DNA of 64,000 bases, taken from assembly GCA_016840085.1 (NCBI GenBank), contig JAEOTA010000088.1, positions 1 to 64,000 of the forward strand, written 5' to 3'. The stretch comes from Promethearchaeota archaeon. GTDB taxonomy: Archaea > Asgardarchaeota > Lokiarchaeia > Sigyniarchaeales > SOKP01. Position 1 is the stretch's first letter. Every line of letters starts with the position of its first letter. The position numbers and the translations under genes are program-made. The notes under the pieces are model-generated. The model was not told the DNA's origin, searched no databases, and saw only the letters and a program-made list of their open reading frames with translations. Positions 12,419 to 30,601 of this stretch are shown one piece after another.

Positions 12419-13384
12419 GTGTGTAATATGAAAAGTTTTAACGAGCTCAAAAAGATACTCTTCTGTGGTTTAGCAAATGGGGGAAAAACCTCAATTCTAT
12501 TAACCTTAGATAGAAAATTCAGTTTATTGACTACTGTTAAACCTACAATAAAAGCTAAAAGAAGTGTATATACAAATTCATTACTGGGGGTCTCAATTAT
12601 CAGATGGGATTTAGGAGGTCAAAAAGGTTATAGGAAAATTTACTTAGAAAATAAAAGTAAATATTTTACAGATATGCAATCAATATTTTACGTAATAGAT
12701 ATTCAATCTTCCGAACATTTTAAAGAAGATTTAATTTATCTTAAAGATATTGTAAATATCATGTCTACTTCTCATCAAGATAATTTTCAGTTCTTAATCT
12801 TACTCCATAAATGTGATCCTGATATAAAAAAAACTAAAAATATTATGACTAAGATTAACTACTTAAAAATTAAAATTCCAACAATAATTAATGATTTGAA
12901 ATTCACTATATATACAACTTCTATTTATGATGAACCAAGTTTATTAAAAGCATTTTCTGATGGTGCTTTTTATGCTACTCATAAATCTAAGATGTTTCAA
13001 ACATTATTAAAAGATTATATGGGTAAAACTTATAGTAGTGCTACTCTCTTATTAGATCAGAATTGTTTTATAATTGCAAGCAGATCTACAAATGAAAACT
13101 ATCAAAGAATTTGCGAAGCAATTGCTCCAAGATTAACACAAGCATTAGAAAAATTAGAAGAATGGGATATAAATACTATAGATATAGTCACAAATATTGA
13201 TTTTTCAGAAAAACACTCAGATTTCCAAAAAGAAGGCATCATTTTTCTAAGAAAAATGGATATTATTGAAACTAGATTTTATCTTGTTGCACTCTGTTTA
13301 AATAAAAATGTAAAAATCAAATCTTATGAATATTTACCATTATTGGCTAATAATCTACAAAATTTATTAGAAAGTTTTGAATGA
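12419..13384 (+). CDS. Rag/Gtr-like small GTPase with C-terminal roadblock/longin-like domain
   Basis: GLANGGKTS, WDLGGQ, HKCD (Rag-type G4), TSIYD (Rag-type G5), ~130 aa C-terminal domain. Confidence 0.8.
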   Translation: MCNMKSFNELKKILFCGLANGGKTSILLTLDRKFSLLTTVKPTIKAKRSVYTNSLLGVSIIRWDLGGQKGYRKIYLENKSKYFTDMQSIFYVIDIQSSEHFKEDLIYLKDIVNIMSTSHQDNFQFLILLHKCDPDIKKTKNIMTKINYLKIKIPTIINDLKFTIYTTSIYDEPSLLKAFSDGAFYATHKSKMFQTLLKDYMGKTYSSATLLLDQNCFIIASRSTNENYQRICEAIAPRLTQALEKLEEWDINTIDIVTNIDFSEKHSDFQKEGIIFLRKMDIIETRFYLVALCLNKNVKIKSYEYLPLLANNLQNLLESFE

Positions 13385-13535
13385 CTCTTCCTCACTAAAT
13401 TAAGATGATGTTCTAGAATCTAAAGTTCTCTCTTATTTTCAATTATCTTAAAATTCATTTTTATTTCCAATGACCTCTCTGGGTGGGGTTTAAATACCTA
13501 CATATGAAATAAACTTAAAACAATGGTAAATATCA

Positions 13536-14726
13536 ATGGCTATAAATTCAAAATCTGACCCTATTTATATAGGTCCAAAAGCTATATTTGATCCGTATTA
13601 CGTACCCCCATGTATATTACATAGAAAAAGAGAACAAAAATTATTATATTCTCTCTTAACGGATTCTATTTCCGATGAGTTTTGCCTTAATATACTCTAT
13701 CAAGGAATTGATGGAATTGGGAAGAAAACAATTATAAATAAAGTGATTAATGATATTTCGATTCAAAATGAAGAGTATATGAATATTCATAAAATATCTA
13801 TTGATTGTAAAGAAAAAAATTTCGAGGAAATGACTTTTTCATTGATATCTGATTTGCTTATCCTTTCAAATCGCGAATTTAATATTGATTCAATTTTAAA
13901 TTCAAATATCTCACATATCTGGAATGTGTTTAAACTATTATGTCAAAAAAGTAATTACAACCTCTTTTTTATATTTAATAATATAGAATATCTAAAACCT
14001 GAGCTTTATAAAAAATTTCTCCATTTTGGAAAAGAAGCAAAAATTACTATGATATCAACTGTTAACAAAGTATTAAGACCACATACTATTGATATTTTAC
14101 AAGAATTCGATTTCAAAAATAAACTAAATTTCTTTACTTATCGTGAACTTTATTCTATTCTAAAACAAAGAGTTATGTTGACTTTTTCACATGATTTAGA
14201 TGATGATCTAATTAGATATATTACAGATTTGGTTTGCGAGCAATATGTACCAGTCCCAGGAAAAGGGATTGAAATTCTTCGAGATCTTTACCCCTTATTA
14301 AAAGATAAGAAGAATTATAAAAATTTTGAAGTAATGGAGAATTGTCAGAGTCATTTTGATCAATCCCAAATTTCTGACGAATTTAGTATGTTGAATTATA
14401 TTTCTGAAGAAAATTTATTAAATATTATCTTCTTGGATAATCTCTCAAATTATTTTATAAGTAAAATGGATTATTATATATCTTTGAATGAATTACATGA
14501 ATTATATAATATTTCTTGTGAATCTTTGACTTATAAAAAGAGTTTAACTGAATTTCGAACTATAACTAAAGAATTGTTGAATATTGGAATTTTAAAACTC
14601 TCAAAACAAGATTCTTGTGAAGATGATGGTTATTTTCATAATTTGAATTCGAACAGTAATTTATATTACATGTTAATAAGCCCTCATCAATTAAAAGCCA
14701 TTATTGATACTGTTTTTAACAATTAA
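13536..14726 (+). CDS. Divergent Orc1/Cdc6-like AAA+ protein
   Basis: FDPYYVP..ILHR..EQ, GIDGIGKK Walker A-like, Y...EL..ILKQRV, C-terminal wHTH; Walker B degenerate (FIFNNIE). Confidence 0.7.
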   Translation: MAINSKSDPIYIGPKAIFDPYYVPPCILHRKREQKLLYSLLTDSISDEFCLNILYQGIDGIGKKTIINKVINDISIQNEEYMNIHKISIDCKEKNFEEMTFSLISDLLILSNREFNIDSILNSNISHIWNVFKLLCQKSNYNLFFIFNNIEYLKPELYKKFLHFGKEAKITMISTVNKVLRPHTIDILQEFDFKNKLNFFTYRELYSILKQRVMLTFSHDLDDDLIRYITDLVCEQYVPVPGKGIEILRDLYPLLKDKKNYKNFEVMENCQSHFDQSQISDEFSMLNYISEENLLNIIFLDNLSNYFISKMDYYISLNELHELYNISCESLTYKKSLTEFRTITKELLNIGILKLSKQDSCEDDGYFHNLNSNSNLYYMLISPHQLKAIIDTVFNN

Positions 14727-14896: not shown

Positions 14897-17800
14897 TTGA
14901 CTTATATTAAGAAAATTTCTATGACGGGATTCAAATCATTTGGAGACCGTACTGTAACAATCAAACTTTCAAGTGGCTTTACTTGTATCGTAGGCCCAAA
15001 TGGAGCCGGTAAATCTAATATTATAGATGCGCTATGCTTCGCTTTAGGTAGATTGAGTAAAAAAACTATGAGAGCTAAGAGTTTAGAAGATTTAATATTT
15101 GCAGGTTCTAGAGGAAAAAATCCTTCTCAAAGAGCATCGGTAACAATGTATTTTGATAATTCAGAGAATGTTTTCCCAGGAGGTACAGAATCTTTTGAAA
15201 TTACTCGTGTTATAAAAAGGGGAGGGGGTGGTGGTTATAAGATGAATGGAAAAAAGTCTACTCGCCAACAGATTCTAAATGCATTAGCTGCTGCAAATAT
15301 TGATCCTGATGGTAGTAATCAATTCGTTTTACAAGGAAAAATTGTTGAATTAACACATATGAATGCGGAAGACCGAAGAAAATTTATTGAAGAACTTATA
15401 GGACTTCAAAAATATGATGAAATGAAAGATGTTACACTAAAAGAATTGGAAAAAGCAGAAAGAGATCTAGGACAGTTCGAAGCAATTTTTAATGAAGTAT
15501 CTTCTCAGCTTAAAAAAGTTGAAAAAGAAAAGAATGATGCGTTAGCGTGGAAAGAATTAGATGATCACATAAATTTTTTGAATTCACAATTAATAGCTTT
15601 AAAAATTTCAAAGTTAAGACAAGAAGAGGATGAATTAGAGAAAAAAATTGATAATTCTCTAAAAATTATCGAAGAATTGGAAGAAAAAATTGTTAGACAA
15701 GAAGATTTGCTAAAACAAGAATCACTTGTTATGGATAATATTCAAGTAACTATAAATGAAAAAGAAAAGGAGAGAGAGGAAATTACTGAAAAAATAACTC
15801 AGTTAAAGACCAAAATCTCTTCAAGTCAAACTACATTAAATCTAGCTAATAAGTCAATTGAGAAATTGACTCAAGAAATAAAAAATTTAGAAAATTTACA
15901 AATGGAGCTTGAAGAAGGGCAATCTATTGATTTTTTAATAGAAAAAGCTTCAAATGAAATTTCTGAAAATGAAAATCTTATTGAAGAATCTAAAAAGGAA
16001 ATAGAAAAAAGACAGCAAACTCAAGCTGAACTGGAGACAAAAATAAAAGATACTGATGAAGAAAAATCACAATTTAAGACTGAAATCTCAAGTGTTAAAC
16101 AAAATATATCGTCAAATAAGGCTCAAATAAAAGTTCTAAGAGAAAATATTATAAAGAATGAAGATAAGAAAACCAAATTAGAAAATGAATTGAATAAATT
16201 AAAAAGAGATGCAGAAAGCATAGATGATGCAATTGAAGATGCAAGAAAGACAGAAAAGGAAATTCGAAAACAAATTGATAATTTAAAGGTAAAAGTCTCA
16301 GAAGAAAACCAAAATAGAAAAGATTTGGAAAATAAAATAAATACACTTCAAGAAGAAAGAAATATTTTAAATGCAAATCTCGGAAATTTACAATCATCAT
16401 TATCATCTTTGAATACTGAGATTAATATGAATAACAGTAATATTCAAGATTTAAATAAGAAAAAAAATTCAATCGAGAAGAAAATTCAGGAATTAAGTAA
16501 GGGTAAAGACACTGAACAAGTTGTTAAAGAATTATTAAAAGAAAATGAAGACATTAATAAAACATTAACAGGATTAAGAGCAAAATTAAAGGAAGAAAAC
16601 TCAATTTACAAAAAAAATGAACAGAATCTAGAACTCTGGAAAATGAAAAAATATTCTATTGAGTCTGAAATTAATGATAATAAAGGAAAGATTGACAATA
16701 TTAATACTGAACTAAAAATATTTACAAAAGAATTAACTAAATTGGAAAGAGAAAAAAATAATTTAGACTCACAAGTTAATACACTTAATAAAAGTCTTTC
16801 AGATATCGAAAAGGATATAGAAAAATTTAGTTTAAAAAAAGAAAATATACGAAGGCGTTTGGAAGAACTTAAAAAAGAAAAGGAGAATCTCTTAAAAAAA
16901 ATTGAATCTTCAGAAGAAGAATACGAAAAAAATACAGAAGACATAACTGGAATCTTACAAATTTTAAACATGCTTACTCAAAACATAAATATATCAGTTG
17001 AGTCCATAAAAGGCAATATTCAACAGTCAAATGCCGAAGCAATAGAAGTATCAGCCGAAGATTTCAAAAAATTTATATTAGATATTGTAGATATAATGAA
17101 AACTATCGAAACACTCGGTAGTGATACAGAACAAACTGCCGAAATGTCAGAAATGCTCAGCTCGATAATGGAAACATTAAGTTTATTTACAGATAATGCT
17201 GATTCTACAATTAATCAACTAATTGAAAAAGTAAAAGAATCCGCTGATGTAGAAGTACAAGCATCAACTGCAACTTTTGATAGTTTTGTGCAAGATCTAA
17301 TGGAAATTCTTGAAAATGTGTATTTATCTTTAAGAAAGTTAACTATGTCTAAGAGTCAAGAACTATATAAACAATTAGAAGAAATTTCTGATACTATTAG
17401 TGCTCAAACTGATGATTTTAATGATGTTGAGAAAAAGTACACTGAAAATAATGTTCAGAATCAACATAGTACAGAAAACCTTTCAATATTTAATCGTAGA
17501 CTTGAAGAAATTAATAAAAGAATTCAAGAATTAAATACTAGAGCTGTGAAATCAGAAGAGGAAAACAATGAAAGAGATGCAAATATTAATGAAAGACAAA
17601 AAGAAATTGAAAATTTAGATGCAGATATTAAAAAACTAGTAGAACTTAAAGATACATATTGGGATAATATTTCTCAAATCCAAGATGATATCGAGAAAAA
17701 ACAAATAGAATTAGAAGCTTTGAGGGAAAAGTTACAAGAATTACATGGAATTCAAAATTTATTCGAAAACATTACTGATATTGATGAAAATATACAAAAA

Positions 17801-19351
17801 TTAAATAGTATGATCGATGAAAAGAAAAATCTGATTATTAATACTGAAAATAGTATTAAAAAAATTCAAGAAGACCAGAATTCTTTGCAAAATGAAATTG
17901 ATACTTACACTTTAAAAAAAGAAAAATTCTGGGAGATAACAGAATATATCCAGAAGCAAATTGAAGATAAAAATAGAGAATTAGAAGATACTATGGATCG
18001 TCTTAGGGCACTGGAAAATGTAATGAGAATAATCAATTCAATTGAAGATATTCAAAAGGAGAATGCAGATGCCAATAATAATATTGAAAAATGTTTGAAA
18101 GATATAGAGGTTTTTAACTCTCAGGTCGATGAAATTCAAAAAAGCGTTGATCAAAAGCAAGAAATAATAGATTCTCTTAGAAATGAAAAAACTAAAGAAT
18201 TAGAATCACAAAAAAAAGCGCAAAAGAAATTAAACAAACTGAATAAAGATTTACAGAAACAACAAGGAAATTTAAATGAGTTAAATAAGAATAAAGAAAG
18301 AGAACAGAAAATTATAGAATTAGGTGAAGAGATAAAAGACACAGAAAAACAAGTAGAATCTATATTGAAAGAATTAGAGAATTTAAAAGAAGAATTAGAT
18401 ACTGAAAATGAGAAAAAGGATACCAAACAAAAAGAAATTGATAAGTTTATTCAAGAAAAAGATGAATCGTGGAAAAAACAAAAGCAATGTCAAAAGATTA
18501 TTACAGATTTAAAATCAGATCTTTCAATGGAAAATTCTAAAAAGAATAACTTTGAATCTAAAAAAATTATATGTGCAGATCAAATAGAAACTTTATTTCA
18601 ACGATCAAAAGAATTTGGCTCATTACCAAGAGTAACTGAAGATCTTTCAGAACCAGGATTACAATCTGAAATATTAGAAGCAACCAAAAAGAAGAAAACT
18701 CTCGAACCTGTGAATTTAAAAGCTATTGAACAATATGATGCAGTAAAAGAAAGATTTGATGAAATTGATATGCGTAGACAAACAATACAGAGAGAACGAA
18801 AATCAATTTTAGATGCAATAGATAAAATAGAACTTGAAAAAACGAGAACATTCATGAAAGCATATCATGAGATTAACAGAGAATTTAGTAGGATTTTTCA
18901 AAAGCTCAGCCCTGGTGGTTCGGCTAAAATGATTTTAGATCGTCCTGATAAACCTTTTGAGGGAGGGATTAGTATTGAAGCTAGACCTCGTGGTAAAAAA
19001 ATATCAAGTTTAGAGATATTAAGTGGAGGAGAGAAGACTTTAGTTGCCTTATCTTTTATTTTTGCAGTTCAAGAATTTTACCCAGCACCTTTTTACGTTT
19101 TAGATGAGATCGATGCAGCCCTCGATGCTCCCAATGTCCATAGAGTCTCCATGTTGCTGAAGGAATTTGCCATACAAGCACAATTCTTGGTTATAAGTCA
19201 TAGGGAGGAAAATATTGTAAATGCGGATAGGATATACGGAGTATCCATGCAACAGTCGGGTATAACAGATATATTTAGTGTTGATTTGGAGGAGGAAGCA
19301 AAACGTATTTTAGAACTTGAGGATATCGAGCCCACCATTACGGAGAATTAA
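14897..19351 (+). CDS. smc: Chromosome segregation SMC ATPase (long, non-canonical hinge)
   Basis: GFKSF, GPNGAGKSN, VLQG, LSGGEK, LDEIDAALD, ISH; long coiled coils; scpA/scpB downstream. Confidence 0.93.
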   Translation: MTYIKKISMTGFKSFGDRTVTIKLSSGFTCIVGPNGAGKSNIIDALCFALGRLSKKTMRAKSLEDLIFAGSRGKNPSQRASVTMYFDNSENVFPGGTESFEITRVIKRGGGGGYKMNGKKSTRQQILNALAAANIDPDGSNQFVLQGKIVELTHMNAEDRRKFIEELIGLQKYDEMKDVTLKELEKAERDLGQFEAIFNEVSSQLKKVEKEKNDALAWKELDDHINFLNSQLIALKISKLRQEEDELEKKIDNSLKIIEELEEKIVRQEDLLKQESLVMDNIQVTINEKEKEREEITEKITQLKTKISSSQTTLNLANKSIEKLTQEIKNLENLQMELEEGQSIDFLIEKASNEISENENLIEESKKEIEKRQQTQAELETKIKDTDEEKSQFKTEISSVKQNISSNKAQIKVLRENIIKNEDKKTKLENELNKLKRDAESIDDAIEDARKTEKEIRKQIDNLKVKVSEENQNRKDLENKINTLQEERNILNANLGNLQSSLSSLNTEINMNNSNIQDLNKKKNSIEKKIQELSKGKDTEQVVKELLKENEDINKTLTGLRAKLKEENSIYKKNEQNLELWKMKKYSIESEINDNKGKIDNINTELKIFTKELTKLEREKNNLDSQVNTLNKSLSDIEKDIEKFSLKKENIRRRLEELKKEKENLLKKIESSEEEYEKNTEDITGILQILNMLTQNINISVESIKGNIQQSNAEAIEVSAEDFKKFILDIVDIMKTIETLGSDTEQTAEMSEMLSSIMETLSLFTDNADSTINQLIEKVKESADVEVQASTATFDSFVQDLMEILENVYLSLRKLTMSKSQELYKQLEEISDTISAQTDDFNDVEKKYTENNVQNQHSTENLSIFNRRLEEINKRIQELNTRAVKSEEENNERDANINERQKEIENLDADIKKLVELKDTYWDNISQIQDDIEKKQIELEALREKLQELHGIQNLFENITDIDENIQKLNSMIDEKKNLIINTENSIKKIQEDQNSLQNEIDTYTLKKEKFWEITEYIQKQIEDKNRELEDTMDRLRALENVMRIINSIEDIQKENADANNNIEKCLKDIEVFNSQVDEIQKSVDQKQEIIDSLRNEKTKELESQKKAQKKLNKLNKDLQKQQGNLNELNKNKEREQKIIELGEEIKDTEKQVESILKELENLKEELDTENEKKDTKQKEIDKFIQEKDESWKKQKQCQKIITDLKSDLSMENSKKNNFESKKIICADQIETLFQRSKEFGSLPRVTEDLSEPGLQSEILEATKKKKTLEPVNLKAIEQYDAVKERFDEIDMRRQTIQRERKSILDAIDKIELEKTRTFMKAYHEINREFSRIFQKLSPGGSAKMILDRPDKPFEGGISIEARPRGKKISSLEILSGGEKTLVALSFIFAVQEFYPAPFYVLDEIDAALDAPNVHRVSMLLKEFAIQAQFLVISHREENIVNADRIYGVSMQQSGITDIFSVDLEEEAKRILELEDIEPTITEN
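19130..19351 (+). repeat. Recoded smc 3' copy (left repeat)
   Basis: 35 of 66 identical-residue codons differ synonymously from 28401-28622. Confidence 0.9.
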
Positions 19352-19367
19352 TAAAAATGAGTTGAAT

Positions 19368-21452
19368 TTATTTTTTACAAGTGTTACACCAACTTCCTTG
19401 GTATACAGCTGCCGGGGTGGTTTCCCACACATGATTATTTTTACATTTTATTTTTATAGGTTTAAACCGTCCTTTATATGGTGTTATTAGCTGACCTCCT
19501 TTCTTACTGACAAAGATTTGAAATTTTTCAGCATATATATCCATTTTACATTTTGGACACAATATCTCAATTTTTTTATAACTTTTTTTAAGCCAATACG
19601 GTGATTTTTTAAATTTATGTCTTTTTGAACATCTATACCATAATGGTGTTTTAGCATTTATATATTCACTAATTAATTTACAACCAAATTTCTTCCCAAT
19701 CTTTCGAAAATATTCCGTTGTTCCTTTCATATTTCTAGCACACTCAGGACACCAATTATCCTGATATACAGAGTTTGGGGTAGTTTTCCACTGGTGTCCC
19801 TTCTCACACATAAGCGTTACTTCTTTTCTTGCCGAAAAATAGGGAGTCATTAGACTTCCACCTTTCTTTTCGACATATGCTCTAAATTTTTTAGCATATT
19901 TATTTTCATATATAATAAATTCTCTATAATCGTATTTGGGGATATTTTTCAGCATTTTTCCCGTTTTTCTTTCATATTCTTGTTCAATATATTTTTGCAT
20001 TTTGGTGTAGGGAAGAAGTTCATCATCGGGAATTTGAATGAGGATCACCCCATTTTTCTCGCATAATTTTAATTTAAGAGCATCTTCTTTCTGTATGTCT
20101 TTTAACTCGTCATCAGTTTTGTTAAAAGCTTTTTTACGGTGTTGAATTCCTTGATATTCAAATGCTAATCCTAAATCTTTATTATATCCGTCGAGTTCCA
20201 TTTGATTTCCCTTCTCATTAATTAGCCATTCGGGATAACTTTTTGGAAAAGGCCTTTTAAAAACCTTTTCAAAGAATTTTCGACAAATTGTCTCACTAAT
20301 GTATATGTTACAGTGTGGACACCAAGAATTAGTATAAACAACACTATTGTAAGTAGTAATAAAATGATGTCCCTCGGCACATTCAAGGTGTAGTTTCGAT
20401 TTAGCATTTTTCAAGGTTTTACTATGACATTTTCCACCTTTCTTTGCTGCAATTTTCCTTATGGTGTCTAATGAGACATGTGTCTGCGTTCGGATATATT
20501 GTTGGTATTCATTATCGGTTAATATCCTTTTTAATTGATTACGAGCAGAAGTATCGCTTAATAAGAGCCATTTTTGAATGTCGTATGCATTGTATTTTCC
20601 TGGATTTTCTAAAATGATAGACTTAACAACTTTATTTACGCAATCAGTATCTCTAATTTTTGTTGTTAAAGAAACAAAATTCGAAATTAATTTTATCTGG
20701 TTTTTAATAGCTTTGGTTTTTTCATCTTTAGACAGACTTAATAATTGTATTTGTTTTTCCTTTAAAAAGTGTATAAATGTTTTGGTCGGGCGGAAGTTTT
20801 TTAACCAATTACCAGAGCGATTGAATTCTTCAACAAGTTGCTTTATTAACGTGCTTCTATGTATGTAATATAAAAAAGTTTCAAAAAGTTCATAATCATA
20901 CCCCCATTTCATGTACTTTTCTATATAATTTTTAAAATCTTCTCCGAATATTGAAACTAAATCTTTTGTTGGAAGTTTGCTTAAGGTGAATAGAAGCGTA
21001 GCCTTATCTTCATCACTAGGCTTTTGTTTTTGAATGATTTTTAGTAATATTGATTTTTCTTTTAAGGTCAAGGTTGTATTTTTATATAAATTCTCCTTTA
21101 AAATCTCCTTTAAATTTTGAAAATCGGGATTATTTTGATTTATAATTTGTTGTAAAGCGTTTCTTTTTTTTATTTCAACCAATAGATGAGTTAATTTTTT
21201 TGCGACTCGTTTTCCTTCAGGAATTAAACTTTTTTCATAGTTTCTACTTTTATATTCCTTATAAATTGCTAGTGAACTTTTTAATTCGTTAAAAAAATCA
21301 TCAAATCTTGGATTATGTTCTTTTAATTGTTTAATTAAAAGCTTATTATTATTGGTAAACTGATGAATTAAACATTGTAGTTCTTCTTTAATTTCTTTAG
21401 AGATCTCTTGGTCTGTTGACTCCTCAATATGATTTTTCAAAAATATTGCCAT
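19368..21452 (-). CDS. Zn-ribbon repeat protein with restriction-endonuclease-like (Vsr/DUF559-type) domain
   Basis: Four C..(G)H......CxxC modules; ELDGYN..L.LAFEYQGIQH...D..K..LC..NGV.LI.IP nuclease signature. Confidence 0.75.
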   Translation of the reverse strand: MAIFLKNHIEESTDQEISKEIKEELQCLIHQFTNNNKLLIKQLKEHNPRFDDFFNELKSSLAIYKEYKSRNYEKSLIPEGKRVAKKLTHLLVEIKKRNALQQIINQNNPDFQNLKEILKENLYKNTTLTLKEKSILLKIIQKQKPSDEDKATLLFTLSKLPTKDLVSIFGEDFKNYIEKYMKWGYDYELFETFLYYIHRSTLIKQLVEEFNRSGNWLKNFRPTKTFIHFLKEKQIQLLSLSKDEKTKAIKNQIKLISNFVSLTTKIRDTDCVNKVVKSIILENPGKYNAYDIQKWLLLSDTSARNQLKRILTDNEYQQYIRTQTHVSLDTIRKIAAKKGGKCHSKTLKNAKSKLHLECAEGHHFITTYNSVVYTNSWCPHCNIYISETICRKFFEKVFKRPFPKSYPEWLINEKGNQMELDGYNKDLGLAFEYQGIQHRKKAFNKTDDELKDIQKEDALKLKLCEKNGVILIQIPDDELLPYTKMQKYIEQEYERKTGKMLKNIPKYDYREFIIYENKYAKKFRAYVEKKGGSLMTPYFSARKEVTLMCEKGHQWKTTPNSVYQDNWCPECARNMKGTTEYFRKIGKKFGCKLISEYINAKTPLWYRCSKRHKFKKSPYWLKKSYKKIEILCPKCKMDIYAEKFQIFVSKKGGQLITPYKGRFKPIKIKCKNNHVWETTPAAVYQGSWCNTCKK

Positions 21453-21459
21453 TTTAAGT

Positions 21460-21477
21460 CAAATAAATTTTTATTTG
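21460..21477. promoter_or_regulatory. Inverted repeat (possible operator) in short divergent intergenic gap
   Basis: CAAATAAA-TT-TTTATTTG between divergent starts at 21452 and 21531; AT-rich, so weak. Confidence 0.3.
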
Positions 21478-21530
21478 TCAAAACTATTTAATACGAAAGG
21501 ATAAAATTAAAGAGATAAACCTAGTAGAAA

Positions 21531-22328
21531 ATGTATTTAATTTATATAGATGAGTCTGGATCATCTACATATAAAGAAATGAATGTTGATTATACGCTTG
21601 CTTCAGTAATAATAGAAGAAAGCAATTGGCAAGCTATTAAGAATGAAATTGATCGTATTAGAATTTTATTTTTTCCAAATTTGGATCCAGATGATATAGA
21701 AATTCACACAAAAGAAATATTCCATAAACAGAATATATTTTGGTCTTTAAAGAATGATAAGAATTTTGATTTTCTAAGAGAATTGTATACAGCAATATCA
21801 AATATGGACTTAACGATAAATGCTATTCATATATTTAAGAAAAATTTAAAGAATAAACAAGATACTCACTCTTATCCAAGAAATTTCACTCCTGAAGAAA
21901 TAGCTTGGACCTTTTTAAATAATAGAGTTTCAAAATATTTAGATAAAATTATGCAAAAAAGAAAAACTGAAGGTAAACCTGCTACTTTTGGTCTTTATTT
22001 AATCGATAGAATTAATAAAAAATATGATCATAAAAGAAAGAAAAGAATTATCAAATATTTCACAACTTCTAAAATAAAAATTGGATTTTTCAAGCCTGTT
22101 TCTCCTTACATGTTGAATGATCCCGTTTTTGTAGATTCAAGTTTTCATATTTTAATACAGATTGCTGATTTAATTGCTTTTGTAATTCATCGAAAACATA
22201 ATTCAAACAATAATAGTAAGATAGATACCTATGTGGAAGAATTTTATAATTTAATAATTCCAAAATTTGATAATGATTCTTTAGATCCTTCAACATACTT
22301 AAATTATGGATTGAAATTGTATCCTTAA
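21531..22328 (+). CDS. DUF3800 family protein (RNase H-like)
   Basis: YIDESG N-terminus, EIH, FVDS....IQIADLIA C-terminus. Confidence 0.85.
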   Translation: MYLIYIDESGSSTYKEMNVDYTLASVIIEESNWQAIKNEIDRIRILFFPNLDPDDIEIHTKEIFHKQNIFWSLKNDKNFDFLRELYTAISNMDLTINAIHIFKKNLKNKQDTHSYPRNFTPEEIAWTFLNNRVSKYLDKIMQKRKTEGKPATFGLYLIDRINKKYDHKRKKRIIKYFTTSKIKIGFFKPVSPYMLNDPVFVDSSFHILIQIADLIAFVIHRKHNSNNNSKIDTYVEEFYNLIIPKFDNDSLDPSTYLNYGLKLYP

Positions 22329-22334
22329 TAAGAA

Positions 22335-22405
22335 GAGGTGAAGGTGAGTGGTGATAAACACCACGATCCCTCCACATTGATGGTGATAAACACCATCAAA
22401 ACTCA
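22335..22405 (+). ncRNA. Candidate DUF3800-associated structured RNA (twin hairpins)
   Basis: GTGGTG-ATAAA-CACCAC (22348-22364) and TTGATGGTG-ATAAA-CACCATCAA (22377-22399); GC-rich patch just after the DUF3800 stop. Confidence 0.6.
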
Positions 22406-22944
22406 TTTAATATATGGATATACATATTTATAAATTTAATCTCACAAACAAATTAGTAATTTCTTTAATTTGTATCTTTTTAATTCTAAGTCTCATGTCT
22501 TAAATATATATTTCAGAATTAAATTTTATTTTATCTTTCTACAATTTTTATCAATAAAAGGATAAAAATGTAAAGATTTTTTTTAAAGCAAAATATAATT
22601 TTTAATCAAATATCTTTTCAGAATATCAAAAATGCCGACGGAAAATTCAACCAGTTTTTAATACCATTAATAAAAAGTTAAGAAATGATTTCAATCATAT
22701 TATAAATTGAAAGTTTTTACAACCTTTATAAGCAATAATAATTTTCATGAAATTTTAACTGTAACTTCTTGAAATTTTTTAGGCATTGATGTTTTTTTTT
22801 ACAATACTAATTTGTAGATGTAGTAATAAGTCAAAAACTACTATAGAAAATTCATAGAGGATTGAGTTATAAATCAATTTATTTAGCTGGGTCTCTTAAT
22901 TTATAATAAATGTAATAGATGTAGATTATTAGTGGGTAGTTAAT

Positions 22945-23832
22945 TTGATAGAATTTAATAGAAATACGTTAGCAATAGTTATTTCAGATATACATATTGG
23001 GAATGAATCTTCCAGAATTCAAGAATTTGCAGAATTTCTTGACATTATCCTACAAAATGTAATCAATAGAAAATTACCCTTTCTTAGAACTCTAATTATC
23101 CTAGGGGACTTCTTTGACCTTCTAGCAACTAGTTTTGAAGATCTATGTTTCAATGAAAAATATTTCCAGATTTATAATGAATTAGATCAAATTAAAAATC
23201 AAAAGATAAAAGTTATCTTTGCATTAGGTAATCATGAGATTTCTACCAGTTTGTTTTACAATCTTCAATTTAAAGGGCGGAAGAAAAGCTTTTTGAGGAA
23301 ATTTGATTACTACTCATTTCCTTTCGATTTTCTCACACTAAATACAATATGTCAATATGTTATTTTAATGAATGATGATGATGATATTTATTTGGGTTTA
23401 TTGGATTCTATTCATGATGAGCCATTTATATGGCTTCATTTAGCAAAAGGATCATTTCTAAATAATGAAACTTATTTTATGTGTCATGGATACCAATTTG
23501 AGGATAAAGATACTCATCATTCGGTTACAGGTTGGTGGGATTATGCGAGAAATTTAACTGAGGGATGGAAGAAAATTATAACATCTACATGGGCAAATAT
23601 TAAAACATTATTACAACAAAGAGATACTTCAAGATTTTATGACAATATAAGTACCAGTTTAGAAAATGCTGATAACCCATATTCCCATATTATATTTGGG
23701 CATACTCATAAGTGTGAAATAAAAGATTCAAAAATATTAAATACAGGTTGCTAGCTTAAAGATTCAAATCCCAGTCATCTTGAAATTTCAATTGATGGTA
23801 GTTGTAAGTTATATGAAATAAATTTTTTATAA
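22945..23832 (+). pseudogene. Calcineurin-like metallophosphoesterase (LpxH-like) with in-frame TAG
   Basis: SDIHIG, LGDFFD, GNHE, HG, FGHTH, NTGC*; TAG at 23752-23754 sits where NTGxW Trp is expected; frame continues 25 codons to TAA 23832. Confidence 0.7.
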
Positions 23833-24046
23833 TTTTTACAATTTTTCTACCTCATTATTCTCTAATAAAAATGTATCCAAATTATCAACTTCAAAAATTC
23901 CAGAATTATTTTTTATTAAAATGTGCTCTTGAGGATTTTTGATATACTATTTTAATATTAAAGTTTTAGTATTCATGTCTTATTAAAAATTAGGGATTAT
24001 CAAGACAACCTCAGAATTAAATAAAATAGAAACATACTTTTATTTA

Positions 24047-24472
24047 ATGAAAGAAGCAGAATTAGTTGATAATTATATTATATTTAGAAAAAAGTCAGAA
24101 CCAAATATTATCATAATAAAAGAGAGAGGTTATCGACAAAAAAAAATTGATCTTATTGAAATAAACTTAAAAACAAATTTAAACTTCCATGGGGTAGAAT
24201 TCAAAATTAAGAATTGGAAACTTGGTCTAAAGCAATGTCTAGGCAATCGAATATTGGTTCCCTATAATTCTTTAGCAATATATTATAAATATGAAAAAAA
24301 TATACACATAGAAGAATTCTCCAAACATGGAATTGGTCTAATCATTATAAGTGATGATGGTTTTAGACAAAAAATACTTCCAAAAAAAAATGATCTATTA
24401 AACTATTACAAATATCATTGTATTTATGAAAAAATAAGAAACATCTTTCCAGAAACTTTAATAAATTGCTAA
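24047..24472 (+). CDS. Small PD-(D/E)XK nuclease-like protein
   Basis: MKEAEL, KIDLI, GVEFK..NWK.GL.Q, GIGLI pattern. Confidence 0.6.
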   Translation: MKEAELVDNYIIFRKKSEPNIIIIKERGYRQKKIDLIEINLKTNLNFHGVEFKIKNWKLGLKQCLGNRILVPYNSLAIYYKYEKNIHIEEFSKHGIGLIIISDDGFRQKILPKKNDLLNYYKYHCIYEKIRNIFPETLINC

Positions 24473-24530
24473 ACTCCCTATTTTTAAGATTAAAAAAAAA
24501 AAAATACTAAATAAAAACATTATTTTAAAG

Positions 24531-25874
24531 ATGGATATTTTTTATAGATTAAACTCACCAAAAGATTTAGCAGATTTGAACGATAGCTTTTCTCAAAGCC
24601 TGTGTAAAGGATTTTACTTCTTTTTAGATGATATTAAATTGCAAAACGACAAAGCAATTCCTAGTAAAAAAAATCTAACTTATCTCAAAACAGTAAAATC
24701 TCTTAAGAGAGATATAATCCTAACTTTTGATTTTAATAAAAAGTTTAGTAGACCTGATTACCATTCTCCAAGATTAAATATAAAAACAACCAAACGATTA
24801 GAAGATAGATTACAGAGAGGCTTTTCTACTAGAAGAGATGTTGAAGAAGAAAAAGAATTTTTCAATTCTATTTTAAGGAAAAACCAAGAAAAAATAGGAG
24901 AGCTAAAAAAACTTGAAAATAAAAAATATTGTATAACAATTTTTAAAGAAATTCTTGATTATTATAAGAAAGTTAAAAAATATTTAGAAGAAGAAGTAGG
25001 TTTAATGCGATTTATTCCTCACATTAGGAAGACAAATGTTATTGGGTATGAAGTACCTTTAATTGCAAATTATAAAATTGAAGAATTAAATGATCCATAT
25101 TTTCAGGTTATTCAAAATTCAATTTTTAAAATAAACAATCATCTTGTAAATTTATGCAGAAAGAGTAGTCTAGATGATTTTATATATCCATTAACAGTAA
25201 TGACTGAAGATTTACAAACGAAAAATCAATTCTTAAATACCCAAATGAACTATCTAAAGGATTTTAAAAGATTATTGATATGGGTAATTGATTCAAATGA
25301 ATTGTATAGTACCAGAAAAAATAAACAGCTATATTTTGATATTGTTCGCGAATTAAGTAAAGACCATCATATATTTATCAAGTATGTTGGAGTAAAACAG
25401 CTCCAAAAATATAAAAAAGAATTTAATGAAGCATCAATTATTTTTCGTGAAGACGCCTATTCGGGTTATAATATTAACATTCAGAGATCTGCTAAGCCAA
25501 AAAGAACTAGAAACATATTAGATCCAAAAGACATAAAACATAAGGATGATAGAGGTCTCTCGAAGGGAAATGTAAATGCCCATTTTGAATGTAGTTGTAC
25601 TATCTGTAATGCTTTTGGAATTGATACTTATAAAAAGGCGATAGATTTTTATCATGGATCTAGGATTGCTAAAGAACCCGAATTTGCTAAGGAAATTTCC
25701 CCAAAACGAGAAGTAAAAGACGAAAAAAAGTATAGACTAGAAAAAACTAAAAAACTCCAAACAAAATTTAGAAAAATACATAACTTCGAAGTAGCGGATA
25801 ATTTAATTTTTATTAAACTAAACGAATTTATAAAAAAATATCCTAAAATAGCAAATCAAATTGGGTTGAGGTGA
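24531..25874 (+). CDS. Hypothetical protein with TGT-like C-terminal zinc site
   Basis: CSCTIC followed by IHN, as in tRNA-guanine transglycosylase/DpdA zinc motif; rest unrecognised. Confidence 0.45.
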   Translation: MDIFYRLNSPKDLADLNDSFSQSLCKGFYFFLDDIKLQNDKAIPSKKNLTYLKTVKSLKRDIILTFDFNKKFSRPDYHSPRLNIKTTKRLEDRLQRGFSTRRDVEEEKEFFNSILRKNQEKIGELKKLENKKYCITIFKEILDYYKKVKKYLEEEVGLMRFIPHIRKTNVIGYEVPLIANYKIEELNDPYFQVIQNSIFKINNHLVNLCRKSSLDDFIYPLTVMTEDLQTKNQFLNTQMNYLKDFKRLLIWVIDSNELYSTRKNKQLYFDIVRELSKDHHIFIKYVGVKQLQKYKKEFNEASIIFREDAYSGYNINIQRSAKPKRTRNILDPKDIKHKDDRGLSKGNVNAHFECSCTICNAFGIDTYKKAIDFYHGSRIAKEPEFAKEISPKREVKDEKKYRLEKTKKLQTKFRKIHNFEVADNLIFIKLNEFIKKYPKIANQIGLR

Positions 25875-25877
25875 AAA

Positions 25878-27032
25878 ATGAAAAATAGAATAAATAAATT
25901 TAATGAAATAATTGAAAATGAAGAATTAGTTCTCTTGATTTTATTTTATTCAGAAAGATATTACACATTAAAGACACGCTTAGTAAAATTGTTATTTCTT
26001 TTTAAAGAAATTTTTCCGATAAACGAAGAAAATGAATTAGATTTAGATTTTTTCCCTTATAATTATGGAGCTACACTTGATTATGATGAGTATCAGTTAT
26101 TAATTAGTACATTAAAGAACTATGAATTCATTGAAGTGGAAGAACAGATATTAAAGAAATATAATAATCCATTAATTAAAATTAAAATTCACGAAGAAAA
26201 AGAAGAAGAAATAATATATATGATTAAAGAAAAGCTTATACCAGAAAAACCAATATATAAAATCGAATTAATTGAAAAAATATGTAAAACCTTCCCTAAT
26301 TTTGATAATAAAGCATTACTTCAATTTGTTTATTATATTAGAGAGGATTTTACTGAAAAAAGCAAAATAAAGGAAGAAATATTTAATTTATCTAAAACAC
26401 AAATACAAGAAAAGACTATAAATCTCTTTAAAGAGCTTCGAATACGATATTTAGATATTTTTCTTGAATACTTAGAAGGAATCTTGAAAATATTTAATAT
26501 AAGTAAAACTATAGCAGATTATCAAATCTTTAAAGAACTTTTCGCAAATTTCCATATAGGCCTAAAAACTAATTCTCTTAAAATTAATAAAAATATCATT
26601 CAAAACTTAGATCAAATGTCCTTAAAAGATAAGAAACATCATAGACTGAAATTATCACTTTTAGACATATTCCTAAAAAATCAAGGTAAGGATTGGGATA
26701 ATGAAGCTATAATTTCTATTATAATATACATATTAAAATCCTTAAGTCTTAGTTGGCCTTTAGAAAAGCCCTTAGATCGAGAGATTTTTATCTCACTAAC
26801 TTCAAAATTACTTCAAAATTATAAATCTTTTTACAAACCGGAAGATACTTTCTCAGTATTAGAAAAAACCATACCTACAGAAGAAGAAATTCAAAAATTT
26901 ATTTTAAAATATGAAAATGACTTAACTGATAGTGAGGAAAAAGAAGAAGATACTGTAAAAGATGAATTTGGTCAAGACTTTACAGAAGACGACGAATATG
27001 AGGATGATATAATTAAAAAGTCAAATTCTTAA
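25878..27032 (+). CDS. Panacea/DUF4065-like (SocA-like) wHTH protein with acidic tail
   Basis: KTRLVKLLFL...FFPYNYGA and LLQFVY motifs; GAGGTGA RBS overlaps the previous stop. Confidence 0.55.
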   Translation: MKNRINKFNEIIENEELVLLILFYSERYYTLKTRLVKLLFLFKEIFPINEENELDLDFFPYNYGATLDYDEYQLLISTLKNYEFIEVEEQILKKYNNPLIKIKIHEEKEEEIIYMIKEKLIPEKPIYKIELIEKICKTFPNFDNKALLQFVYYIREDFTEKSKIKEEIFNLSKTQIQEKTINLFKELRIRYLDIFLEYLEGILKIFNISKTIADYQIFKELFANFHIGLKTNSLKINKNIIQNLDQMSLKDKKHHRLKLSLLDIFLKNQGKDWDNEAIISIIIYILKSLSLSWPLEKPLDREIFISLTSKLLQNYKSFYKPEDTFSVLEKTIPTEEEIQKFILKYENDLTDSEEKEEDTVKDEFGQDFTEDDEYEDDIIKKSNS

Positions 27033-27039
27033 GCTTAAT

Positions 27040-27939
27040 GTGGAGAATAATAACTTGGATTTGGTATTAGATTCATCAGCATTAATAAATCTCTTTTTTG
27101 GAAGTACTAAGACTTCTAAAAATATCCAGAAAATTATTTCATATTATGAAAATATTTGTATTACTAATATAGTTCGGTATGAATTTCGAAACTACTTTTT
27201 AGATTTCTTCCGTTTCCTAGAAATCTATAAATCAATAATAAAAGATTTCCAAGAAAATAAAATTATTATACATAAAATCTTTCCTGACTTATTAGAAGAA
27301 CTTTCTCGAATATATCACCGAAAATCACAGCGTTTTGGTAGGATAAGAATAATCTATGAAGGAGTACTAGAAAAATATCAAAAAAGGATCTTAGAAACCA
27401 TGATTAAAGGTTTACAAAATTGTGAAGATATAAAGCAAATTCTAATAGACCGGTTAAAAACTGTAATCTGGGACTATCAGATAAAATTAAAAATTGTTTA
27501 TGAAACTCTTACAAATTATATTGTAATAAAAGACTTTGATTGTAGTTTATGTAATTGGAAATACTTTTATGATGCAAATATAGATGAATTTATTATAAAT
27601 GAAAAAAGAGTATGTTCAAGGATTTGTTTCAATATTAAGGAAAAGTTATCATATTTCGCTAATGAAAATCAAACTTTTATTGACTTAATTTTGGAAAATT
27701 ATATTAAATTAAGTAAAGAAAGAAAAATAATGAATTATGATAAAAATCTTATTCCATCTTTGCAAAAAATTATAAATAATAAAAATGCACATATTGGAGT
27801 TAAAGATTGTAAAAGCTTAGGTGACTTTTTTATTTCATCAATTGTAGATGATAATCGGCACATTTTAACTAATAATAAAAACCATTTTTTATTATTATTA
27901 CTTTGTAAAAATAGAGAGAATTCTTTGATCTTATTCTAA
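27040..27939 (+). CDS. PIN-domain protein
   Basis: LVLDSSALI, VRYEF, LGDFFI, ILTNNKNHF PIN motifs with large insertion. Confidence 0.65.
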   Translation: MENNNLDLVLDSSALINLFFGSTKTSKNIQKIISYYENICITNIVRYEFRNYFLDFFRFLEIYKSIIKDFQENKIIIHKIFPDLLEELSRIYHRKSQRFGRIRIIYEGVLEKYQKRILETMIKGLQNCEDIKQILIDRLKTVIWDYQIKLKIVYETLTNYIVIKDFDCSLCNWKYFYDANIDEFIINEKRVCSRICFNIKEKLSYFANENQTFIDLILENYIKLSKERKIMNYDKNLIPSLQKIINNKNAHIGVKDCKSLGDFFISSIVDDNRHILTNNKNHFLLLLLCKNRENSLILF

Positions 27940-28391
27940 TAAAAAAAAGATTACTGAATCTTAAATATATTAATTAAAATTATTTCTTCATACTATATTA
28001 ATTCATTTTCTACTTTCTTGCAGAATTTGAAGGTAGATTTACAAACATAATTTAAAGATCCTAAATAAAATCTATTCAATTTTTCATTTTTCTGTTTTAA
28101 TTATGAGAATATTCACTAAATTAGATTTATAAAAGTGAGGAAATCAAGTATTTCCAAGTAATTATCCATCTTAAGTAATATAGTGAATTTAGTAAAAATT
28201 AGAATATATTTAATCCAATATAAATATCAAAAAAATACAATAAATTATATAGATTTTCACTTAGTTTAACTCTCTAGTATGGATTATTAATATTTTTTAG
28301 GATGAAATCCTATCATCATATTATAGCTAAATAAAATAAAAGAATAAAGTATAATTTATCATAGATAATAATTTTATTTAAACAAATCAAT

Positions 28392-28622
28392 ATGAGTAGC
28401 CCAAATGTTCATCGTGTAAGTACAGTAATACAAGATTTTGCTTCACAGGCTCAATTCCTCGTAATAAGCCATAGAGAAGAAAATATCGTAAATGCAGACC
28501 GCATATACGGAGTTTCCATGCAACAAAGTGGAATAACTGACATTTTTAGTGTTGATTTAGAGGAAGAGGCTAAACGTCTCTTAGAGCTTGAAGATATTGA
28601 GCCTACTATTACAGAAAATTAA
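28392..28622 (+). pseudogene. Orphaned smc 3' end (76-aa ORF)
   Basis: PNVHRVS...ISHREE...EDIEPTITEN duplicates the SMC C-terminus; directly upstream of scpA. Confidence 0.85.
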
Positions 28623-28653: not shown

Positions 28654-29652
28654 ATATCAGAAGACCAAAAGTCAGAGAAAGAATATAATTTTATCCAGTG
28701 GACAGTAAAAGAATTAAGGGAGTTTGCCTCCAAAAACAATATAAAAGTTCCTTCAAAATCTAAAAAGAATGATATAATTGAATTATTAAAAAAAATTGTG
28801 TCTCATCCTGAATTTGTTGATCGATCTGAAGAACCAGAAGAATTGGAAGAAGAACTTATAGCTGATTTTGATGAAGAGGAAGATCTTGCTTTATTAAGGA
28901 AAGAAAAAATAGACCTGAAATTTTGGCAAAAACCACCTTTTTCAAGTTTATTAGATACAGAACTAGCAAAAGAATCAGATATAGCATTTTATGATTTAGC
29001 TAGTCTAGTTGATAAATTTTTCGATAAAATGCTTCACGAAGATTTAATTAACTATAAGATCTCTGGAATTGCATTGAAGACTTCAGCATCATTACATCAT
29101 TATAAAATTACTAGTATAATAAAAGAAGAAGAACAAATACAGAAAAAGGAAGAATTAGAACGATTTCGACAAAGACATGGGAGATCTATACCAAAAGCTT
29201 TACCCCAACCAATACAACCTAAAATGCTAATTGCTACAAAGGAGGAATTATTCGATGCTATGAGATCTGCTATAATAGAAGTAATGCAAAGCAAAGAAAA
29301 ATTAAAAAGAAGGAGGATGCGAAAAGAAGAATTGAAACAACAGAGAATACAACTGAGATCAAAAGCTCAATTACCCAGAGAACTGTTAAAACATATTAGT
29401 GGAAAAGATCAGACCATTAAAGAGCTTCATAATTCATGGCATAATCGGATAAAAGCCACAATTAATTTAGATAATAAAGAAACTAGTTTCTTTGATTTAA
29501 CAAATATTATTAAAGATGAAGAAGAAAGTAGTATTGGTAGGAAATTTGCTTTAGTAAGAATGTTTTTAGCTCTAATGTTTTTATCCACAGGAGGCAAATT
29601 AAATTTGTCTCAAGATGAAGATTTTAAGAATATATCTGTAGATATAAAATAA
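28654..29652 (+). CDS. scpA: Kleisin ScpA with N-terminal SAP/HeH-like module
   Basis: DLASLVDKFF..M....NYKISGIAL N-kleisin, FLALMFL...GKLNLSQDEDF..I C-kleisin; frame opens at 28648, GGTGA RBS 28643-28647, probable ATA start upstream of the called GTG 28798. Confidence 0.8.
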   Translation: MSEDQKSEKEYNFIQWTVKELREFASKNNIKVPSKSKKNDIIELLKKIVSHPEFVDRSEEPEELEEELIADFDEEEDLALLRKEKIDLKFWQKPPFSSLLDTELAKESDIAFYDLASLVDKFFDKMLHEDLINYKISGIALKTSASLHHYKITSIIKEEEQIQKKEELERFRQRHGRSIPKALPQPIQPKMLIATKEELFDAMRSAIIEVMQSKEKLKRRRMRKEELKQQRIQLRSKAQLPRELLKHISGKDQTIKELHNSWHNRIKATINLDNKETSFFDLTNIIKDEEESSIGRKFALVRMFLALMFLSTGGKLNLSQDEDFKNISVDIK

Positions 29653-29680: not shown

Positions 29681-30601
29681 ATGAATAATATTAATGAAAA
29701 TTTAAAAGAAAATCCAGAGGGAGAATCCCAGGAAGATATTGAAGAAATCTCTGAAGTTGTCTCAAATGAAGAGAGTGAATCAGAAGACTCTAAGGAAAAT
29801 AGTCAACAAATTGAAGAAGTCTCTGTCGATGAAGTAAGTGAAGAAGAATTCGGTGTTGATGACAAAAGAGCTATTATAGAAGAAACAGATGGGGATGTTG
29901 AATTTGAATCTATAGAGCGTGAAAAGATAGAAGATATTGATGAAACGGTTGAAGACAAACCTTTAGAGAGTGAATCAATAGAAGAAATATCATTAGAAGA
30001 ACAGCTAAGAGAATTTGATAGGAACTTAATTGAAGCTTCATTATATGCTGCAGGCAGACCTTTAACAATCGAAGAAATTTCAAATAAGTTAGAAATATCT
30101 AAAAAAAAAGTAGAAGAATTAATCAATGAGGTTGCTTTTGATTATCTAGAACGCTCAACAGCATTAGTTATAGCCCAAATAGGGGATAGATATCAGATGC
30201 AGATTAAACCAGAATATACTGAAAAAGTATCAAAATTTGCTAAAGGAGGAGCTATTGCTGAGCGGTATTTAAGAACCTTAACGATTATTGCTTTAAAACA
30301 GCCAATCTTAAAATCAAGTGTGATCAAATTAAGAGGTACTGGAGCATATGAACATGTAAAATATCTTATTGATAATGGATTTATAGATGCCGTCAAAAAA
30401 GGAAGAACTCATGAGTTAACAACGACAGATAAATATTCGGATATGTTTGGACTACCAAAAGATAAGACTGAATTGAAACGTGTTATGATTAAACAATTAG
30501 GTGTAGAAGAAGTTGCAAGTATTGAACAACCAGAAGTAATCGAAGAAGAAGAAATTGTAGAAAAAGAAAGCCTGGAAAAAGAAAATTTGGAACAAGAATA
30601 A
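29681..30601 (+). CDS. scpB: SMC-Scp complex subunit ScpB with acidic N-terminal extension
   Basis: IEASLYAAGRPL, LRTLTIIALKQPI, RG..AYEHVKYL, TT.KY...FGL. Confidence 0.92.
   Translation: MNNINENLKENPEGESQEDIEEISEVVSNEESESEDSKENSQQIEEVSVDEVSEEEFGVDDKRAIIEETDGDVEFESIEREKIEDIDETVEDKPLESESIEEISLEEQLREFDRNLIEASLYAAGRPLTIEEISNKLEISKKKVEELINEVAFDYLERSTALVIAQIGDRYQMQIKPEYTEKVSKFAKGGAIAERYLRTLTIIALKQPILKSSVIKLRGTGAYEHVKYLIDNGFIDAVKKGRTHELTTTDKYSDMFGLPKDKTELKRVMIKQLGVEEVASIEQPEVIEEEEIVEKESLEKENLEQE

Follow-up and report, generated by a model that had tools for sequence, protein, structure and literature searches.

Results

Gene content of the smc locus

The DNA analysed here (the window, 64,000 nucleotides in length) carries on its forward strand an smc gene (14897-19351), which was delineated from the list of open reading frames and by Pfam and NCBIfam and which encodes a hinge-less, long-armed Smc of 1484 aa, termed type A in the following. 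To be counted as an Smc-ScpAB condensin, a protein should have a split ABC head of the Smc type, genes for a kleisin (ScpA) and a kite (ScpB) linked to its own, coiled-coil arms that are long, antiparallel and constrained in length, and an alpha/beta hinge (PF06470); it should also form a homodimer by way of its apex and use ATP to entrap DNA or extrude loops, two properties that are only inferred for the protein described here. In NCBIfam the prokaryotic Smc models (TIGR02168: 616 bits, cut-off 567; TIGR02169: 633 bits, cut-off 729) outranked the ASRP, Rad50 and RecN models by far. The N-terminal half of the head (14897-15421, forward strand) contains Walker A (aa 33-40) and the Q-loop (aa 143-147), and the C-terminal half (18794-19291, forward strand) contains the signature (aa 1375-1380), the Walker B/D-loop (from aa 1401) and the H-loop. 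All of these motifs are intact, in agreement with a preliminary description of this DNA, which had called them canonical; by motifs, NCBIfam scores and the head tree described below, the head is of the Smc type. Throughout the order, heads are 67-95% identical. Just upstream of smc (12419-14726) lie a Rag/Gtr1-like GTPase gene and a Cdc6/Orc1-like gene without Pfam match; a Cdc6-like gene is found upstream of smc in most of the family.

The genes scpA (28798-29652), identified by profile comparison with Asgard kleisins, and scpB (29681-30601), identified by family match, follow on the same strand. That both are present had been stated before and holds for the window as a whole, but an island of about 9 kb separates them from smc. 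The kleisin ORF gave no Pfam or NCBIfam match. Compared with Asgard kleisins, five of which exceed the Pfam ScpA cut-off, it was matched by HHalign with 99.7% probability (E 3e-26), and its PDB matches, though weak, were every one ScpA/Scc1. It is the sole ScpA-type match in its own genome. The linked kleisin and kite of an Smc-ScpAB condensin are thus present, with the linkage split by the island in this genome.

The island (19352-28391, no strand assigned) is located at the smc 3' end, encodes a Zn-finger protein, a DUF3800 protein, a metallophosphoesterase and a four-gene cassette, and lies outside the complex. At the end of the island the last ~76 codons of smc are found once more (28392-28622, forward strand; 189 nt, 79% identical). 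The island is missing from a 96%-identical relative (G276), and none of its ORFs could be recognised as an integrase. Since a related Zn-finger gene lies directly after smc in two other genomes (G207 and G343) and a similar insertion is found in a third (G030), the smc 3' end looks like a recurrent insertion site. The four-gene cassette (24047-27939) has no Pfam matches and occurs a second time, in the same order and with 54-69% identity, on another contig of the genome (C44:35114-39008). It could represent a module for defence or a mobile one.

The hinge is replaced by a duplicated, predicted helical hairpin

In the preliminary description the Smc was proposed to lack both a hinge and a CxxC hook. 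A Pfam SMC_hinge scan of the whole protein and of residues 560-960 gave no match at E<=1, and the apex model obtained with AlphaFold contains no strands; the alpha/beta hinge of an Smc-ScpAB condensin is therefore not found. A degenerate hinge as the origin of the apex was rejected as well, because profile-profile comparison with the hinges of the nearest relatives revealed no homology (HHalign probability only 0.4%). The protein has five cysteines (30, 47, 1066, 1198 and 1226), none of them in a CxxC motif, and such a motif was found in 0 of 24 type A proteins. No MukB-family match was among the Pfam and NCBIfam matches listed, in which Smc models scored highest; on these matches, membership in MukB/MksB/JetC, which would demand a MukB-type head and hinge, was rejected.

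In the place of the hinge lies an acidic all-helical hairpin (16928-17362, forward strand; aa 678-822), which is inferred to be a dimerisation domain. It consists of repeat unit 1 (16949-17113, aa 685-739), predicted as the ascending helix, a turn (17126-17137, aa 744-747), which differs between homologues both in length and in sequence, and repeat unit 2 (17162-17326, aa 756-810), the descending helix, all on the forward strand. The internal repeat of ~71 aa noticed earlier could be reproduced: the motifs start at aa 685 and 756 (nt 16949 and 17162) and at aa 719 and 790 (nt 17051 and 17264), each pair exactly 71 apart. At this offset the self-score was 64, compared with 23 for the runner-up offset (mean -33, sd 22), and profile autocorrelation likewise had its maximum at 71 (z 3.7). 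Local alignment of the repeats scored 73, whereas 2000 shuffles gave a mean of 29 and a maximum of 57, and 80 windows taken from the arms of this protein a maximum of 58. In the AlphaFold model the apex is an all-helical antiparallel hairpin (pLDDT 83, pTM 0.42) with its turn at aa 744-747, so that the two repeats correspond to its two strands; each monomer is thus modelled to fold back at this turn with repeat 1 against repeat 2, the low pTM being a weakness of this model.

The apex is a peak of conservation, three of four apex windows reaching 70-84% as compared with 34-56% in the flanking arm. Conserved apolar columns amount to 41-45% in the apex (arm mean 22%, arm maximum 36%) and form an arc of 200-260 degrees with a period of 3.66 (11/3-type), which exceeds what a two-stranded coil buries. 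From these extra columns and the wide arc it follows that one face of the apex is left over once the hairpin has formed. The apolar residues are arranged in two collars with a waist of small residues between them, giving an internal pseudo-twofold. The net charge is -11 to -18, with an acidic apex in 20 of 20 homologues, while hinges range from -9 to +11. Fold searches with the apex returned only generic helical hairpin and coiled-coil matches (best Z 11.3, 8.6 A over 218 residues), including the cytoplasmic four-helix bundle of chemoreceptors (2ch7, 3g67), which is alike in its long helical hairpin and in the parallel dimer geometry proposed below; without a sequence family match, this remains an analogy only. 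Crystal structures of SMC hinges were matched in the fold search only via flanking coils, a sequence search of the PDB gave coiled coils only, a structure search of the ESM Atlas was empty, feature matches were all below 0.9, and no phage match was found. A homodimer prediction for aa 640-880 scored 0.00, which is no verdict and can be used neither for nor against binding.

The arms are long, of fixed length and built from modules

The N-terminal arm (15422-16942, forward strand) has about 505 aa and is built from modules of ~97-98 aa, as indicated by an autocorrelation peak at 195 (2 x 97.5); the C-terminal arm (17342-18793, forward strand) has about 485 aa and is built from 90-aa modules (autocorrelation maxima at 90 and 180). 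The distance from the Q-loop to the apex was 535 aa and that from the apex to Walker B 577-579 aa in 22 proteins, whose apex identity goes down to ~30%. In two short proteins (P0153 and G314) of Ca. Sigynarchaeota, a basal lineage, these distances were 439 and 489 aa, each arm having one module fewer (97 aa and 90 aa, respectively, as seen from the deletions in P0153). The matched deletions in both arms confirm the fold-back register, and the long antiparallel arms of constrained length expected of an Smc-ScpAB condensin are present. The modules echo the period of 91 aa with which arm length determines viability in B. subtilis Smc (PMC5344682). Long arms by themselves are not new, since the lengths of natural arms are known to cluster near 423 and 515 aa (PMC5344682).

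Type A Smc is distributed throughout one order of Lokiarchaeia

An apex profile matched in 99 of 113 further genomes belonging to the order (CR-4/Sigynarchaeales of Lokiarchaeia in GTDB, which includes Promethearchaeum) and in 0 of 7 genomes representing the remaining orders of the class. With the domain in 171 proteins, an assembly artefact or a strain-specific lesion was rejected. Of 225 genomes outside the order in a phylum-wide sample, two (G193 and G205) had a match. Because these matches sit on short contigs and both genomes hold a separate Smc of ~1200 aa (with a degenerate hinge in G193), they are probably bin contamination. Against 1.84 billion representatives the profile found 43 clusters, the strong ones being long Smcs, their fragments or one headless family. 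Homologues carry the labels Promethearchaeota or Lokiarchaeota; some proteins of 70-85% identity bear other names at NCBI, such as Thor-, Hod- and Hermodarchaeota, which seem to be wrong.

In most loci read, scpA and then scpB directly follow the type A smc. This order holds in P. syntrophicum (DSAG12_00820/819/818), Ca. Lokiarchaeum ossiferum (type A Smc UYP46603) and Ca. Harpocratesius, while other Asgard lineages have Smcs of ~1190 aa with a hinge. In one single-contig MAG (G316, L168:2393-6844) the type A smc is present as two ORFs of 878 and 529 aa, owing either to a sequencing frameshift or to a real break.

Paralogues and origin of the hinge-less Smc

Up to three SMCs (types A, B and C) were found in the order. 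Type B has ~1200 aa and a canonical hinge; an ScpB-like gene lies next to its gene, and a second kleisin is encoded at an unlinked site. It was detected in 24 of 121 genomes and in 0 of 35 genomes of this genus, and it was not found in most of the family or in the genome studied here. At the type B loci (L033, L053-L057, L162-L163), which are patchily distributed, no kleisin lies between smc and its ScpB-like neighbour, the second kleisin being encoded elsewhere. Whether the genome encodes another SMC with a hinge had been raised in the preliminary description; one was found on contig C19 (Pfam hinge, SMC5/6-like). This type C protein is probably SMC5/6-related, and SMC5/6-like SMCs with a hinge occurred in those genomes that were checked. 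Type A is the only canonical-type Smc found in its own genome. In the genome scan a third SMC-like gene was found on contig C44 (19641-22499), encoding ~950 aa with a short central domain without Pfam hinge match.

In a phylogeny of the heads, which had been proposed as a check, type A forms one clade (SH-aLRT 100) nested among hinge-bearing Smcs. Its sister group (94) comprises the Smcs of family f24 and of the remaining orders of the class, in which a hinge, though divergent, can still be detected. These head-only trees are quick ones with SH-aLRT support only and a single long outgroup. A hinge is present in every other sampled lineage but for the zinc-hook-like SMC L157. As type A is one clade and hinges occur in all other sampled lineages with this exception, the simplest reading of the sequences is a single, derived replacement of the hinge, which would have taken place in the common ancestor of the order. 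The Smcs nearest to type A (L042, L060, L069, L038, L154-L156) have shortened or divergent hinges, several of them under the Pfam cut-off, which suggests that hinge decay preceded the replacement. The SMC L157:4236-8018 (G302; 1260 aa) has Smc-type heads, a central CxxC and no Pfam hinge, and may be a zinc-hook Smc of natural origin, from a different order of the class.

The earlier proposal that a different domain has replaced the hinge in an Smc-ScpAB is well supported: no hinge was detected by Pfam, by HHalign or in the model, and the protein is the Smc of an smc-scpA-scpB operon with its head nested among hinge-bearing Smcs.

Two apex copies occur in a headless protein

Genomes of the Promethearchaeum family (f2), the only ones in which it was found, encode a headless protein of 920-1180 aa (e.g. 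DSAG12_01461) with two apex copies, which are joined at their bases by a short Gly turn and followed by a region rich in beta structure and a lysine-rich tail. Further examples are L014:5997-9122, L016, L018, L020 and P0122-P0132; the tail is histone-H1-like. The protein may be a nucleoid protein or a mimic of the Smc apex. A model calculated from 17 sequences (pLDDT 86, pTM 0.56) matched the up-down four-helix bundles 4uos (Z 12.3, 186 of 188 residues aligned, 3.3 A, model residues 69-444) and 6w6x (Z 12.3, 120 of 126 aligned, 3.2 A, model residues 99-408). The four-helix matches cover both hairpins, and as the aligned ranges (about 99-408 and about 62-450) are symmetric about both turns (~125 and ~378), the two hairpins are indirectly read as predicted to pack side by side with their tips together. 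The model suggests, but does not show, a parallel Smc apex dimer. The linkage of the hairpin bases favours a parallel arrangement by itself, the geometry was read from alignment ranges, and such Z values are common for helical bundles.

Discussion

Comparison with known SMC proteins

With Smc-ScpAB (TIGR02168/TIGR02169; B. subtilis, Pyrococcus and other Asgard Smc) type A shares the head motifs, head phylogeny, operon, long antiparallel arms and a length step of ~90-97 aa; it differs in having an acidic helical hairpin instead of an alpha/beta hinge and in its arms, each of which is roughly 120-170 aa longer and visibly repeat-built. RecN is likewise an SMC-like ATPase without hinge or hook and dimerises via apical helices (PMC4255302), but it has short arms, no kleisin or kite and a distant head (TIGR00634 36 bits, cut-off 408). 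Membership in RecN, which would require a RecN-type head, short arms and no accessory subunits, was rejected. Rad50/SbcC and ASRP (ClsN/Sph; PMC9389158) also have no SMC hinge, but their CxxC zinc hook is missing in type A; membership was rejected by scores (NF045487: 163, cut-off 300; Rad50 models: at most 102 bits, cut-offs 454-1087). An oceanic cluster of 'hinge-less' SMCs assigned to Actinomycetes (PMC12153180) likewise combines SMC-type heads with the lack of a hinge or zinc hook, but is bacterial and metagenomic, and no replacement domain is described in the part of that source available to us. The apex profile matched no proteins like those of this cluster among the 1.84 billion representatives, and taxonomy and head tree point to a position of type A outside the oceanic actinobacterial clade. 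None of these known hinge-less relatives matches type A. In the engineered B. subtilis chimera Smc(Zh) (PMC5344682) the Smc also carries an unrelated apex domain, whereas type A is natural, order-wide, metal-free and all-helical, with a function that is inferred.

Surveys of Asgard SMCs (PMC8665677; 10.1101/2024.01.07.573240) handle these genes by phylogeny. The latter cites the smc-kleisin-kite operon of P. syntrophicum as a model for a condensin/cohesin-related Asgard complex; this is probably the type A operon, and the missing hinge is not mentioned in the text and supplements of that work. In searches limited to open-access literature no description of this hinge loss was found.

A condensin probably closed by a helical clamp

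The present analysis establishes that the heads are intact, that smc is linked to scpA and scpB, that no homology to hinges can be detected, that the domain is conserved throughout the order and, in the simplest reading, has a single origin, and that arm length is fixed and changes by whole modules. These findings are best explained if the protein serves a single Lokiarchaeia order as its main Smc-ScpAB condensin, being a member of the condensin Smc lineage that fails the hinge criterion; that no second canonical-type Smc and no second ScpA were found in its own genome also counts for this role. The dimerisation of the apex, for which no experimental data exist, is inferred from its position, the conservation peak, the extra apolar face and the model of the tandem paralogue.

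We consider it probable that two type A monomers are joined by a parallel four-helix bundle of their apices and bridged at the heads by ScpA, the apex acting as a passive clamp, and that they organise the chromosome like other Smc-ScpAB. In the common ancestor of the order, a duplicated helical hairpin of ~135 aa would have taken the place of the alpha/beta hinge. Two hairpins side by side, tips together, would form a bundle ~65-70 residues (about 10 nm) long, resembling the chemoreceptor signalling bundle. Both arms would exit it on one side, giving the usual Smc rod or ring closed at the heads by ScpA, and DNA loading and loop extrusion would proceed via heads, kleisin and tuned arms. The position of the apex at the fold-back point counts for a clamp, as the two-copy headless protein with its four-helix model does for pairing. 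Being strongly acidic, the apex is unlikely to bind DNA or to serve as a gate, an inference made without DNA-binding data. B. subtilis Smc functions with an unrelated zinc hook replacing the hinge (PMC5344682), so an unrelated dimerisation domain suffices there. Against this reading, the hinge-bearing SMC5/6-like SMC that is also present could do part of the work; in addition, archaeal ScpB may not join Smc-ScpA (PMC7055376).

The apex might instead not associate with itself, its spare apolar face binding another protein or a membrane while the two Smc chains are kept together only by their heads, the kleisin and contacts between arms. Weak, sub-threshold apolipoprotein-like Pfam matches in 8 of 21 members would fit this, as would the headless protein, in which the domain is in use outside Smc; but that protein was found in one family only whereas the apex is order-wide, and its two copies pair in the model. 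To our knowledge, all characterised SMC-family proteins have an apical dimer interface, which also speaks for self-association, and we regard its absence as unlikely.

If the hairpins did pair in the antiparallel manner, the distal collar of one would lie on the proximal collar of the other, as an antiparallel overlap needs and as the internal pseudo-twofold of collars and waist would provide; RecN offers a precedent for dimerisation by apical helices (PMC4255302). The heads would then be apart and engage between dimers, producing chains or very large rings. However, the headless-protein model reads tips-together, the short Gly turn between its hairpin bases cannot span an antiparallel pair in one chain, and type A has kept its kleisin and an arm length fixed as in ring-forming Smc, which leaves this arrangement quite unlikely. 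A repurposing of the complex as a structural filament or for defence or repair, with chromosome organisation left to hinge-bearing paralogues such as the SMC5/6-like SMCs or, in some genomes, type B with its own kite and second kleisin, is very improbable given that type B was not found in this genus and most of the family, whereas type A is almost universal throughout the order and has kept the ancestral arrangement of the operon, housekeeping neighbours and strongly conserved heads.

Returning to the parallel clamp, its fullest form is evenly balanced in our judgement: a working, loop-extruding condensin whose acidic four-helix clamp neither opens nor binds DNA, which in most genomes of the order has no other canonical Smc-ScpAB beside it, and whose clamp was copied in tandem into the headless, lysine-tailed protein as a mimic of the Smc apex.

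Models of loop extrusion by SMCs disagree on what is required of the hinge, be it DNA binding, opening as a gate or reaching as far as the heads, and in one engineered B. subtilis swap the hinge fold was dispensable (PMC5344682). Type A appears to be what was previously obtained only by engineering, and would be a natural, order-wide hinge swap in an otherwise complete Smc-ScpAB. Its two natural arm lengths, one module apart, provide a test of the arm-period rule. P. syntrophicum and Ca. L. ossiferum, both of them cultured, possess it, and some cultured Asgard archaea also carry a hinge-bearing Smc for comparison.
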